IMG/VR virus record: IMGVR_UViG_3300037459_000226
Location: 11,542-75,541 of that record
Length of the DNA: 64,000 nucleotides
From: a virus
Direction: 5' to 3' (one strand)
Shown: piece by piece, positions 10,688 through 47,973 of the stretch
Position numbering within the stretch: the stretch's first letter is position 1
Layout of the letters: every line of letters starts with the position of its first letter
Translations under genes and position numbers: made by a program
Notes under the pieces: generated by a model
Database searches by the model: none
What the model saw: the letters and a program-made list of their open reading frames with translations, nothing else
What the model was told of the DNA's origin: nothing

Positions 10688-10782
10688 GAGCCGCCAGCCC
10701 GCGCGGTCCGTCAACCTGTCCCCAACCGGCGGGCGGACCGTGCCGCTGGATGCTTTTACAATTTACTAATCGGAGGTGCGAG

Positions 10783-11121
10783 ATGATTCCACGAGTCGCG
10801 GCAATCGACACTCAGTTGGCGGATGTCGACGGCAGGCTGTCGTCGTTGGAGGATCTACAGCGATCACTCACGAGTGAGCGACGCAAGCTGCTTTCGCAGC
10901 AGTTCGTCGAGGTGACCAACGTCACTCTGGCCGACGTCGAGCTGTCCACAGGCGAAGACCGGCCATACTTCACCACGTTCGGAGAATTCGGAAAGTGGCT
11001 TAAGAAAAACAACATCCAAAGGCGGTACGCCGAGTGGAACACCCTGCTCTATTACACGTCGGATGCGATGGCGGGACGGATGGGTGAATCGCTTGCGGAG
11101 CTGGAAGACGTCCCCGCTTAA
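10783..11121 (+). CDS. Hypothetical protein, paralog of 11540-11875
   Basis: Shares VT..VE, WN..Y.T.D..AGRM and LE.VP motifs; GGAGG SD. Confidence 0.7.
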   Translation: MIPRVAAIDTQLADVDGRLSSLEDLQRSLTSERRKLLSQQFVEVTNVTLADVELSTGEDRPYFTTFGEFGKWLKKNNIQRRYAEWNTLLYYTSDAMAGRMGESLAELEDVPA

Positions 11122-11171
11122 ACTTCAGCGATGCCGCTGGATGCTTTTACTCGAACGATGGGAGAAAGACG

Positions 11172-11543
11172 ATGATGACCGCAGAAGAGAAGCAGTGTGC
11201 GTTCAAGGCAGCGTTCGGGAGGCTCGACGAGGAACATCTGGGCAACCTGCTGTTTCACGCCGAGCAGAAGACGCCGGTCTGCTGTGGAAAAGATGCGTGG
11301 CTCTACGCTGACGGTTCAGGCGGGATGTGACCGGCCGCGATGTCGTGCACCCGTGAGGTGTACATGGATCGCACAGTCGGCGGTCTTCGCACGTGCCCTG
11401 AGTGGGAAAGTGCATTTTCCACGCTGATGGGTGCAGCCGGCCACAGCACAATCGCCTACTACGTCGCGTTGAAACAGTCCAACGCCGATGAGGTTCGGCA
11501 AGCCGTGCTGTCAGTCTGCGATCCAGGTGGAGAAACCAAATGA
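11172..11543 (+). CDS. Candidate UGA-readthrough (selenocysteine?) protein 1
   Basis: 52 codons, in-frame TGA at 11328-11330 (context YADGSGGM-*-PAAM), then 70 more in-frame codons; GGGAG SD at the 5' start; hairpin at 11337-11372. Confidence 0.5.
11337..11372 (+). promoter_or_regulatory. SECIS-like stem-loop 1
   Basis: GCGAT-GTC-GTGCACC[CGTGA]GGTGTAC-ATGG-ATCGC; the loop starts 21 nt after the UGA and contains GU at positions 2-3. Confidence 0.45.
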
Positions 11544-11875
11544 GAACACGGCAGTCAATCCAGATTGAGATCACCCACCTGAACATGGAAATCTCACCGC
11601 TCATTCGCAAGAGGAGCGTGCTGAAGCGAGAGTTGAATGAGGTCGAGTCTCGCAACTGGATCGCGGCGAACGGCGTGACGATTGATCAGGTGGAACCCGA
11701 ACCCCCGTTTGGAACATGCGGAACCATCTTCGATGCACCGGCGAGGACGGGAAAGCGGTTCTTGACATGGAACGGTCGTGTGTACTTCACGGCGGACATT
11801 GCTGCCGGCAGGATGCCGAGAGAAAACGGTCTGCTGGAGCACGTCCCACAAACAACGGGAGCACGAGATGCCTAG
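11540..11875 (+). CDS. Hypothetical protein, paralog of 10783-11121
   Basis: ATGA coupling; shared motifs with its paralog. Confidence 0.7.
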   Translation: MRTRQSIQIEITHLNMEISPLIRKRSVLKRELNEVESRNWIAANGVTIDQVEPEPPFGTCGTIFDAPARTGKRFLTWNGRVYFTADIAAGRMPRENGLLEHVPQTTGARDA

Positions 11876-12857: not shown

Positions 12858-13277
12858 ATGAATAATCGGCAACGATACGCACTCAGGAAACCGTGTTCGC
12901 GAGCACCTGACGTACTACGCGACCGCCGTTATTTTGCATGGCGGGGAAGCTGGTCAACGATTCTGAGTGTTAATAAATGACTCAGCTTCTGTAGTGGTAT
13001 GCCCGTGTGGCACGCCTCAGTCGCTCTCCAATCCCGAAATGGTCCAAGACCAGTCGAAGCACTCAAACGCCAGCAAATTCACAAGGGGATCAAAATAGCC
13101 AGCGCCTTGCTGGTAGGTGTCGGCGGAGATCGAATTGTTTTCACCACGGATCCACCTAGAGACGCAATCCACGTTCAAAAGCCGCTGACAGTGGAAGAAA
13201 TTGAGGGTTTACCCGATGGATGGATGCAGATCGCAGCCATAGACGAACGTGGGACGTACAGAATTTTAAGGGTGTGA
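12858..13277 (+). CDS. Candidate UGA-readthrough (selenocysteine?) protein 2
   Basis: 40 codons, in-frame TGA at 12978-12980 (context ILSVNK-*-LSFCSGMPVWHASV), then 98 more in-frame codons; GGAG SD only at the 5' start; hairpin at 12996-13016. Confidence 0.5.
12988..13020 (+). promoter_or_regulatory. SECIS-like stem-loop 2
   Basis: GGTATGCC[CGTGT]GGCACGCC, extendable by CTG/CAG; the loop starts 23 nt after the UGA and has the same CGTG core as hairpin 1. Confidence 0.4.
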
Positions 13278-46000: not shown

Positions 46001-46282
46001 ACGCTCCAACATCTCGCGGCCCCCGACTCTGTTTTCAGCAGAGAACGGGGTGAGGAACTGGTCGAATGGGTTTTCTCCGGACACGATGTCGCGAACAGAT
46101 GACGCCCCGGTTGCCAGATCAAGGAAGTTGCCAACGCCCGCCAGTCCCGAGAGACCCTGGCGCATAATCAGATTGCCAACCGACTCTTGATCAGCGGTAT
46201 CGCCCTGCCTCTGAGCACGAGTTGCTGGCTGCTGTCTCCCCGCGCGCGTAAGCAATCGCGCTGCTGCCGGAGAAAGCGCCAT
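43052..46282 (-). CDS. Large internal virion / DNA-ejection-like protein
   Basis: 1076 aa, rich in G/A/R; YFPR, P.FHTRNL, R...F, DYS, FPFW.F motifs typical of podovirus-like internal proteins. Confidence 0.6.
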   Translation of the reverse strand: MALSPAAARLLTRAGRQQPATRAQRQGDTADQESVGNLIMRQGLSGLAGVGNFLDLATGASSVRDIVSGENPFDQFLTPFSAENRVGGREMLERFGALGRNRPGFDWGDVAGFGAEVFFDPATYATLGGSAVTKLAGTAMKNAGLMRAVTATGRGMGYGKAMGRVMLTPRQVIQTPSELKHFSRAARQLGPEGATKAGRRAMLDDPIGGLAGLHVPFGRNVAVARGSGAQLLARGMDWAGETMRATWPVRQGARLFASSVRDMSTLPIQRAASKLTGEIAGTRVQNRALVGRAIADLVEQGRVGSKDADQLRNIFEGLEAAPPEMGQMVNDVWGRLEGVRQELDYAGLRSGILDDDMVRYFPRFMTEMMYGLRRAVSGKGKKGFQTFDPTEMGRQPFLKNVEGGTVRIKQILQDPQVAAAARWQDVQTVIQSPRFRGSLPAHLEEDFSKWAHGLSENVRESGVFGNHPLVDLLAKLEMSGGAARSGKAILEMLTDTDVLGYTSRNANTKTIGNILQNANMAHGSQGVQDAAKRLGMSADDFLSRSVNADIADDIGRMMKFYQSPDGVNEVLQVVDSVTNLWKGYVTGIAPAFHTRNLFSGQVANAMHGMFSANSVRAAHAILRGRSFAGLEAIPAVRWRLMKESRALTPGNAADMIRRMAFEHELVHGQGEVASVAGQAVEQGATGLQEMAQKMPGGLGGAHPIGGMRILRKATGLEPGTTFNPLEMRGFGGRPESRFTLGAAGDEIGVYVEGMNRLAPFIQQLKRGVRPGEAADRVKAVQIDYSARKYTQFEREKAQRLFPFWKFSKNVLPPTLKLLFERPGGLMAQTLRATRHLRGEDNQILPEYISQQAAIPLGTTPQGDQRFLSGFGFMHEDPIAFAGTPKTVGLELLSRANPLIKGPLEFATGQTFFQRGPMGGRRLEDLDPTIGRIISNAKQIISGEKAERGRARPFISTGFEQLVSNLPTARITTSLRTATDTRKNAIEKVMNLFTGVRLTTLSPAAQDAVIRETAQMLMREYGANVFEKVYFSDDEKAAMTPDKLQIAEGLEAVVKQLRNNAKLRKDSNPLDAAARRR

Positions 46283-47706
46283 CAGAATCCTCCGAACGGT
46301 ATGTCATACGAAGGGATGTTGCGGGTCTGCTGTCGGCGTTGCTCTTGACGTGCCGGGAGCGAGCGTTCCATTGCGATGGCCCGAAGTTCATCAATGCTCT
46401 TGCCCTGAGCGATCCCCTGAAGCAACCGGATGGTTCCCGGTTCACCGAATGCGCCGAACCGGCTTCGCTCGGTATTGAAGAACTCCGGATCGGATCCACC
46501 CCTCGCGGAAATCCACGGCTCCAGCAACTCCAGCGACTTCTCATCAATTTCCTGCCCACTCACGAACATGTCTTGCAGTTTTTCCTCCAGAGCCAACTCA
46601 TCAAACCATAGGCCGCCGCTTTCACCCGTGCGGTGTTCCACGCCAAGGAACCCAAGAAACTGATCGACTGAGCCACCTTCCCGATACGAATTTAGAATCT
46701 CCCTTGATTCCGTCAGTGTCGGCGTTGAACCCCCGCGCTGGCTCACACCGCCGTCTGTCTGCGCGGTTTGTGATGTCGGAGGAGTGAAGGGTGCCGCCCC
46801 ACCATCACCAGCGAAGTATCGGCGACGCGATTCCTGCCGGCGCGCCATCTCGTTCGCGCGTGACTGCTGGAACTGCGTGGCGTTCTCCGGAACTTCTCCT
46901 CTTCGCATAAGGCGGTTCGCGAGAGACCGTTGAACCTGTTCCTCATACCGACTCGCCATCGGCCCTCCCGGTCCCGATTCAGGGCCAAGGAGCGAGCCAA
47001 GGCTACGTGCCTCTCGCTTGGCTTCCAGGTTCGCCGTCGCTTCCTCCAAGCGCTGCTCGTGCGTCATCCCCGTCCGGTCGACAGCACGTTGATCAGGCGT
47101 TCTGTTGCGCTCGGCAGCTTCAAATTCTTCCTCTGGCGTCAGACCTGGATACTGCCTTCCAAAAGTATCGCCCTGCATCCCCCAAGACGGAGCACGACCT
47201 CCTTGTCGCTGCCGCCGCCGAAGCTCTTGAGCCGACACGCTGCCACTGAGAACGCTGTCGACGTTCTCGCCTTGGGTTTGCTCAAAATCACTCTCGGCTC
47301 CGAATCCGGCGTACACGTCTGCGTTGCGGGCCGCGAGGCTCTCCCTGGCTGCCCTCTTCAGATTGAAGTAACTCTCCATGCCGGCGACTTCGGGAGGAGC
47401 GTGCTCAGGTTGGCCTTGAAACGGAGAGTCCTCGCCAGTCAGCCGCTGACGGAGGCGAGCGTTCAAGTTCAGGGCCGCTGCGGGTTCACCGCCTGAAGAC
47501 TGGCCAAAGTAGCCCTGTGATTGAAATCCTGTGGAGTCGAGCGTGCTCGGTCCGTGCTCTGCGCCGGGAACGTAGGCGTCCGGCGCAGGAGCAACCGATG
47601 CGAGTGCCTGGCCCGCCAATGACTGCGCAAGGCCCCGCCTGCGAGTTCGACCGCCGCGCCCGCGAGCCATTCCGCCGCGTCGCTTGCGATTCCCGATGTG
47701 TGGCAT
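46282..47706 (-). CDS. Low-complexity putative internal virion protein
   Basis: 474 aa, rich in G/Q/R/E; TGATG-coupled to the 1076-aa gene. Confidence 0.55.
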   Translation of the reverse strand: MPHIGNRKRRGGMARGRGGRTRRRGLAQSLAGQALASVAPAPDAYVPGAEHGPSTLDSTGFQSQGYFGQSSGGEPAAALNLNARLRQRLTGEDSPFQGQPEHAPPEVAGMESYFNLKRAARESLAARNADVYAGFGAESDFEQTQGENVDSVLSGSVSAQELRRRQRQGGRAPSWGMQGDTFGRQYPGLTPEEEFEAAERNRTPDQRAVDRTGMTHEQRLEEATANLEAKREARSLGSLLGPESGPGGPMASRYEEQVQRSLANRLMRRGEVPENATQFQQSRANEMARRQESRRRYFAGDGGAAPFTPPTSQTAQTDGGVSQRGGSTPTLTESREILNSYREGGSVDQFLGFLGVEHRTGESGGLWFDELALEEKLQDMFVSGQEIDEKSLELLEPWISARGGSDPEFFNTERSRFGAFGEPGTIRLLQGIAQGKSIDELRAIAMERSLPARQEQRRQQTRNIPSYDIPFGGF

Positions 47707-47727: not shown

Positions 47728-47973
47728 TGAGTCGGGCCGGATTCAAACCGGCTTGGGGCATCAGTAGTAGGCACAGCCCCACCGTCAAACCGTGCTGTTC
47801 CCAGTGGATTCGCTTACGCCACGGCTCCTGCTATCCGTACACGGCAGCCCTTGTCACTTGTCGGTTCCGCCGCTGCTGGTCCGTGCGAGTGGACTGTCGA
47901 GGTCCTGCCACTCTCCCAGCAGACTCCACTGCCGACCCTACACTTCCGGGCGTTTCCCACACGCCGCCGACTC
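47728..47973 (-). ncRNA. 246-nt structured RNA with tRNA-like termini
   Basis: Acceptor-like stem GAGTCGG/CCGACTC-A, D-like arm GCGT-GTGGGAA-ACGC, T-arm GCCGG-TTTGAAT-CCGGC, about 195 nt of helical interior. Confidence 0.7.

Follow-up and report, generated by a model that had tools for sequence, protein, structure and literature searches.

A stretch of 123 codons at positions 11172 to 11543 (+) of a phage genome is read here as a single gene for a protein of 123 amino acids, in which an in-frame UGA, codon 53, is decoded as selenocysteine (Sec). The probability of this reading is put at roughly 0.8, and the insertion of selenium is inferred. The unity of the gene, the alignment column occupied by Sec or Cys, the conservation of the TGA and of a hairpin behind it, and the single-domain fold obtained by prediction are results of the analysis, whereas selenium insertion, the use of SelB, and the redox chemistry are inferences, as data from selenium labelling, proteomics, or RNA are lacking. 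It is also considered rather likely that the gene represents a selenoprotein family met so far only in uncultured phages and metagenome contigs (sediment, soil, and groundwater), with a previously unseen small helical fold, a SECIS core of its own, CACC-CGUGN-GGUG, and a UGA kept over deep divergence and, in one phage, in three copies. Judging from the sequences recovered, the family is so far confined to uncultured phage and unclassified metagenome contigs.

Phage Genome and Genetic Code

The window, that is, the whole stretch of 64,000 nucleotides that was analysed, comprises bases 11542 to 75541 of an IMG/VR virus record of 75,541 bp. The record bears an exact direct terminal repeat of 127 bp, and the GC content of the window is about 58%. 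The sole sequencing run containing the phage DNA is a marine sediment metagenome. An independent assembly of this source run, available from Logan, is identical to the window from 11000 to 11700; the sequencing error that the first-pass annotation had named as a possible refutation was checked in this way, and the in-frame TGA is not an error of assembly.

No tRNA was detected by ARAGORN in the phage DNA, and a suppressor tRNA is likewise missing. Rfam reported no family at threshold in the window and nothing near the gene, and selA, selB, selD, and a tRNA-Sec, looked for across the phage record, are all absent. A tRNA-shaped element of 246 nt at 47728-47973 (−) was considered as a phage tRNA-Sec and ruled out: ARAGORN found nothing in it, Rfam had no family at threshold, and the tRNA-Sec model gave no match at E ≤ 1.

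It could be supposed that TGA is a sense codon everywhere in the phage or in its host, standing for Trp (code 4) or Gly (code 25). Reading TGA as coding does lengthen the ORFs of the phage, although any GC-rich DNA would be expected to show this effect. The supposition is contradicted by the fact that TGA terminates 21 of the 32 long ORFs in addition to the gene under study. A terminal TGA beside the start of the following gene is found in this gene and in 8 of the 11 relatives that contain the in-frame TGA. DnaB and other long phage genes are intact under code 11, and the lack of a suppressor tRNA points the same way. TGA is the main stop codon of the phage and is not reassigned genome-wide, and a general change of code has next to no chance of being correct.

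Structure of the Gene

The gene begins at ATG 11172, 8 nt after a Shine-Dalgarno sequence GGGAG read directly at 11159-11163 (+). Its UGA lies at 11328-11330 (+) in the context ...YADGSGGM-UGA-PAAMSC and is followed by C, which makes the stop context UGA-C. The frame then stays open for 70 codons (11331-11540, +), which would be translated only if the UGA is decoded, and the terminal TGA at 11541-11543 overlaps the ATG (11540) of the next gene. These elements had been pointed out in the first-pass annotation, from the Shine-Dalgarno sequence, the start, and the TGA at codon 53 to the 70 further open codons and the stop overlapping the next ATG, and all of them are present in the sequence. Both halves of the gene obtain their best codon-usage score in the frame that they share, which marks them as coding. 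The C-terminal 70 codons are conserved in Cys and TGA forms; they carry PAAMS right after the Sec position and a conserved helix of the pattern Y..AL...(x)..VR.A. Upstream of the UGA are found the codons for His29 (11256-11258, +), an invariant column of the family alignments, and for Cys37-Cys38-Gly39 (TGC TGT GGA, 11280-11288, +), in which Cys38 and Gly39 are invariant as well.

The genes on the two sides, 10750-11121 and 11540-11875 (both +), are paralogues of each other, with 27% identity and E = 4e-10. In both, the N-terminal part is a coiled coil and the C-terminal part bears the common motif ...Y(Y/F)T(S/A)D..AGRM...E.VP, and no match to any known family was obtained for them.

A second selenoprotein candidate at 12858-13277 (+), in which TGA is codon 41 and is followed by UGCC-CGUGU-GGCA, is not supported. 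Homologues of its downstream ORF start at the internal ATG, without an N-terminal extension, and are proteins of 84-93 aa in their own right. The upstream 40 codons look non-coding, even though the loop resembles CGUGN.

Relatives of the Protein and the Cys/UGA Column

With phmmer, run exhaustively against 1.84 billion representative proteins, 30 hits were obtained. Full-length relatives of 111-230 aa span both halves of the gene, and more than 10 proteins of 111-145 aa align to query residues 2 to 119 or thereabouts. The proposal that the two halves form one protein of 123 aa is borne out by these homologues, as well as by the one domain that AlphaFold returns for the full length. Word-based protein searching and a peptide-pattern scan with the single protein retrieved no relatives. 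The long proteins with Ig repeats among the phmmer hits (P0005, P0007, and P0027) are matches by chance summed over repeats and were discarded.

In the alignments, the column of the UGA holds Cys in at least 12 homologues, within the motif DGxGG-[C/U]-PAxLA, as had been anticipated when a Cys was suggested for this site in homologues. Had the column carried varied residues other than Cys, the Sec reading would have been refuted; with Cys in at least 12 homologues, it is not such a position. The departures are Trp in two homologues (P0022 and P0032) and Ser, Ala, or a gap in three, so that, as far as the alignments can tell, Cys or Sec at this column would not be absolutely required. The Trp form P0022 (175 aa) is peculiar: Trp recurs at several other places, and after one such Trp, near the usual C-terminus, comes an implausible 50-residue stretch of hydrophobic character. 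Possibly a gene caller applied code 4 to a gene that contains TGA, an inference made without its DNA.

The same column is also the point at which many annotated proteins end. Thirteen database proteins of 48-54 aa, eight of them phmmer hits and five from a profile search among short proteins, stop exactly one residue short of it, and all IMG/VR copies of the family are annotated as fragments of 48-59 aa or missed. The splitting of the gene by the ORF track, noticed from the outset, is visible in the window's own ORF-call fragment, P0004, which covers only the C-terminal half.

Such fragments could be taken at face value, as two small in-frame genes of 52 aa and 59-67 aa that make a split protein, the second being translated by termination-reinitiation at ATG 11340. 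This ATG does lie 9 nt past the TGA in the window, and gene callers annotate nothing but fragments, P0004 being an example. Still, ATG 11340 has no good Shine-Dalgarno sequence and lies within the hairpin, and no start codon occurs past the TGA in L001 and in most of the other copies. The residues just past the TGA, P-A-x-L/M-A/S, are conserved and align with those of the unsplit Cys forms; the break falls always exactly at the Cys codon, and AlphaFold gives one domain. The occurrence of the two halves as independent genes had been named as a refuting observation; the only protein limited to the C-terminal half is P0004, the window's own fragment, and no independent gene homologous to that half came to light. 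A split gene is thus judged very unlikely, and the reading as one gene with Sec at codon 53 is retained.

Outside phage and metagenome sequences, the family was not encountered. No member was found among cultured phages, and no prophage copy in 185,579 species genomes, which were scanned with a restrictive motif pattern. That scan returned 99 loci, and all 80 that were examined proved to be out of frame or due to chance, mostly from one actinobacterial gene. The artefact has its source in an out-of-frame ...TTRTPICCGSS...; the actinobacterial gene concerned is conserved and lies upstream of that for ribosomal protein L9. The loci L007, L019-L021, L027, L029, L030, L033, and most of L037-L116 are not family members. 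No match to the Cys form P0006 was found in IMG/VR.

DNA Copies with TGA at the Same Codon

TGA occupies the same codon in 11 further DNA copies from eight other phage or metagenome contigs, which brings the total with the window to 12 copies on nine contigs. These TGA forms are L001, L002, L011/L012, L014, L015, L025, the three paralogues of L139, L141/L142, and L143. Each of the other copies has 58-95 open codons past the TGA with the PAxLA and AL..VR.A motifs, so the homologues with UGA at this column that had been proposed as supporting evidence do exist, with the frame continuing in all 11.

The searches differed in how far they predetermined this codon. The peptide pattern KTPICCG together with tblastn in IMG/VR left the column unspecified and returned two contigs, both with TGA at the column, then an in-frame P-A-x-L-A and the conserved C-terminal helix. 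Two DNA patterns with the codon written as TNN, also run on IMG/VR, retrieved L139, L141/L142, and L143 besides chance hits. In these codon-unbiased searches, TGA was present in 7/7 copies, the window and an extra L139 paralogue included. Conversely, the pattern of the metagenome scan required TGA-CC, and its five hits (L011/L012, L014, L015, and L025) are a biased sample. The UGA-C context is common to 12/12 copies, with the C imposed by most search patterns.

L139 is an IMG/VR phage contig of 85,328 bp, in which an HMM scan of six-frame translations located three paralogues, two in tandem and a third about 2.6 kb upstream (L139:1800-5350, +). Their UGA codons are at 1947, 4755, and 5142, and each is followed by a CACC-CGUGN-GGUG hairpin. 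At the loci examined, the first ATG is preceded by a Shine-Dalgarno sequence (GGAG or AGGAG, at the same distance), and past the TGA no ribosome-binding site accompanies any start codon. Most copies whose flanks were examined end beside the start of the following gene. The neighbourhoods consist of early or replication-type genes, with no informative partner common to the loci.

Deep divergence among the TGA forms is evident from a maximum-likelihood tree, where their terminal branches measure 0.35-1.3 substitutions per site. The TGA forms are interspersed among the Cys forms, but the tree is poorly resolved.

These copies bear on the possibility that the gene is simply broken, either by a nonsense mutation or by an error of sequencing or assembly. 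A lone in-frame stop in an otherwise intact ORF does resemble a recent nonsense mutation. However, the same TGA recurs throughout the 12 copies, including three paralogues of one phage, the reading frames behind it have stayed intact and conserved across deeply diverged lineages, and the independent assembly is identical. A broken gene can be set aside for practical purposes. More generally, the conserved TGA, the open frames, and the deep divergence taken together either exclude or make very unlikely a recent nonsense mutation, an error of assembly, and the splitting of the gene.

Some other elements were seen on the contigs that carry these copies. L139:561-628 (+) scores 44.2 bits with the Rfam model of the type II hammerhead ribozyme, whose gathering score is 37. 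A 72-nt tRNA with the anticodon UAA lies directly upstream of the family gene in L141 (8937-9008, −); it is unusually short for a tRNA-Leu, and L143 has a similar sequence ahead of its gene. A tRNA-Cys(GCA) is located about 3.5 kb downstream of the gene in two further contigs (L001:5207-5280 and L002:5321-5392, both +). None of these elements reads UGA.

The Hairpin behind the UGA

A bacterial SECIS element is a stem-loop on the 3′ side of the UGA; its apical loop, some 16-37 nt away, has a G or GU near its beginning. Immediately after the UGA of the phage gene, a SECIS-like hairpin extends over 11337-11372 (+); it is supported by folding and by a core common to L015, L139 (all three paralogues), L141, and L143. 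Its outer arms are GCGAT (11337-11341) and ATCGC (11368-11372), and the upper stem is formed by GUGCACC (11345-11351) pairing with GGUGUAC (11357-11363). The apical loop, CGUGA (11352-11356), starts 21 nt past the UGA, and ATG 11340 is enclosed by the hairpin. The structure, with its loop at 21 nt and the buried ATG, had been described in the first-pass annotation and is confirmed in the sequence. The conserved part is the 13-mer CACCCGUGAGGUG at 11348-11360. A variant of it, CACCCGTGCGGTG, with the loop CGUGC, occurs at 46623-46635 (+), antisense to an ORF of 474 aa (46282-47706) and without an upstream UGA; this copy is probably due to chance.

The folding energy is modest evidence when taken by itself. 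For the hairpin folded alone (38 nt), the minimum free energy is −17.3 kcal/mol (z = −2.5), a value matched by 4 of 200 shuffled sequences. In a context of 81 nt, it is unexceptional (z = −0.06). Each copy was also scored by its best single hairpin with an apical loop starting 14-24 nt past the UGA, against 150 random positions in its own DNA. By this position-restricted measure, the window hairpin has p of about 0.013. Among the first nine copies, most beat the majority of their background and two or three did not, giving a Fisher p of 0.02. The energy statistic is only modestly significant, as expected in GC-rich DNA.

Position and sequence are more regular. The apical loop begins 17-21 nt past the UGA in 11 of the 12 copies, and a G is found within the first two loop positions in 10/12, so that the bacterial SECIS pattern of a stem-loop (11/12) with an early loop G or GU (10/12 with the G) is largely met. 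Seven copies, namely, those of the window, L015, the three L139 paralogues, L141, and L143, share C-ACC-CGU-GNG-GUG, which corresponds to the stem CACC/GGUG and the loop CGUGN, 21 nt after the UGA. Across this core, the third codon positions are invariant in the seven copies, whereas the neighbouring codons vary freely. The codon preceding the core always ends in C, though it encodes Cys, Ser, Tyr, or Phe, and the five codons before the core show free variation at their synonymous sites. On the basis of each genome's own codon usage, the joint chance that four genomes share the choice of ACC/CGT/GTG is about 5e-9, a figure that overstates the independence of these lineages, which are related. 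L015 is AT-rich, and ACC and GTG are rare codons there.

The other five copies fall in the other half of the tree and have different hairpins at the same place. The loops in these copies are UGUAA, AGUUAA, CGGGC, and GACC, starting 17-21 nt past the UGA; for L025, no convincing hairpin was found. As the hairpins occur in two registers, RNAalifold detected no structure common to six copies. The expectation of a hairpin kept behind the UGA is borne out, with a core conserved at its synonymous sites in seven copies, though without a single RNAalifold consensus.

A UGA may also be passed without any SECIS element. UGA-C is the leakiest, that is, the weakest, bacterial stop context, and a near-cognate tRNA, typically tRNA-Trp, could read it at low frequency. 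Leaky termination of this kind predicts a product of 52 aa plus some full-length protein with Trp, not Sec, at position 53. Besides the leaky context, it can appeal to the two homologues with Trp at the column (P0022 and P0032), Trp being the near-cognate insertion at UGA, and to the fact that Sec machinery in the host has not been demonstrated. On the other hand, the residue found at the column in at least 12 homologues is Cys, the specific partner of Sec, and a hairpin with conserved synonymous sites is located at SECIS distance. The Trp of P0022, moreover, may be nothing else than a TGA translated with code 4, an inference that is unverified. Leaky readthrough is accordingly regarded as improbable, and decoding of the UGA as Sec remains the preferred reading.

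Predicted Fold and Proposed Redox Centre

AlphaFold2 was run on the full length across the UGA with an alignment of 24 sequences. One compact domain was obtained, with a pLDDT of 91.2 and a pTM of 0.85. The predicted helices comprise residues 4-15, 20-31, 54-59, 76-87, 95-101, and 105-121; there are also a short strand at 44-47 and single-residue beta-bridges at 36 and 52. Residue 53 would form the N-terminus of helix 54-59. The model suggests that the Cys37-Cys38 dyad adjoins residue 53, the pairing of bridges 36 and 52 being inferred without coordinates.

Pfam and PHROGs gave no hit for the 123-aa protein, and a PDB profile search gave none below E = 0.5 (E ≥ 0.5). Foldseek against PDB and BFVD returned only E > 1, VIA-align a best Z of 3.9, and the structural neighbours of the Cys form P0006 were weak only. 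As modelled, the protein is small, mostly helical, and without detectable similarity to solved structures. The lack of a database match is not proof of a previously unseen fold.

The location of Sec or Cys beside an invariant Cys in the CCG turn and an invariant His leads to the inference of a redox-active selenol/thiol centre. Sec53 could possibly form a selenenyl-sulfide with Cys37 or Cys38, a redox chemistry that is inferred from the predicted geometry.

Proposed Decoding and Biological Meaning

As a ribosome nears the UGA, the downstream hairpin is proposed to act as a SECIS element of the bacterial type. It would recruit the host SelB-GTP-Sec-tRNA(Sec), and this complex would compete with RF2 at the weak UGA-C stop. 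The phage would thus contribute the gene and the RNA signal only, while SelA, SelB, SelD, and tRNA-Sec would come from the host. The marine sediment source suggests that the host may be a Sec-using anaerobe, but Sec competence of the host is an assumption, as no host has been identified. DnaB offers no clue in this respect, its best identity being at most 37%, and no cultured relative was found.

If the reading is true, phages routinely hijack the SelB pathway of their hosts, and the full-length form of an early protein is conditional on the Sec competence of the host and on the supply of selenium. Confirmation would establish that phages are able to exploit the host SelB/SECIS pathway and would add a selenoprotein family of unknown fold together with a compact, testable SECIS core of 13 nt. 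It would also mean that gene callers systematically split such phage genes. The gene could then serve as a host-range marker, since the host must be Sec-competent, and the protein as a small model for Sec/Cys redox chemistry.

Comparison with Known Systems

Recoding of UGA to selenocysteine is well documented for cells as well as for two poxviruses, and a phage case was not found in the literature searched: no bacteriophage-encoded selenoprotein was met with, and phages are not mentioned in the paper on the bacterial selenoprotein database BSepDB. Three criteria are applied in the field: Sec must pair with Cys between conserved flanks, homologues with TGA must exist, and a stem-loop must follow downstream (PMC12013277, PMC13326102). 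The family meets them with its Cys forms, numbering at least 12, its 11 further TGA copies, and its downstream hairpin. Neither the family nor its predicted fold matches any known selenoprotein family, Pfam model, or solved structure searched.

The viral selenoproteins reviewed are only the glutathione peroxidases of poxviruses, namely, molluscum contagiosum virus and fowlpox virus (PMC8310308). Like these, the phage protein would be a virus-encoded selenoprotein dependent on the Sec machinery of the host, and in fowlpox virus the SECIS is within the coding region, as in the phage gene. The poxvirus enzymes, however, belong to eukaryotic viruses, are captured cellular genes, and use a SECIS of eukaryotic type, whereas the present gene is from a bacteriophage, carries a hairpin of bacterial type directly behind the UGA, and belongs to a family for which no cellular counterpart has yet been found.

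The closest likeness is to the genes with an in-ORF SECIS read by SelB, whose prototype is E. coli fdhF. Unlike these cellular genes, the family is carried by phages, and the element itself does not encode the trans-acting machinery, which has to be borrowed. As in the fdhF type, an in-frame UGA aligns with the Cys of homologues, a stem-loop lies immediately 3′ of it, and homologues with TGA exist in other genomes. Counting from the U of the UGA, the loop GU of the phage hairpin is at nucleotides 26-27, and that of E. coli fdhF is at 23-24.
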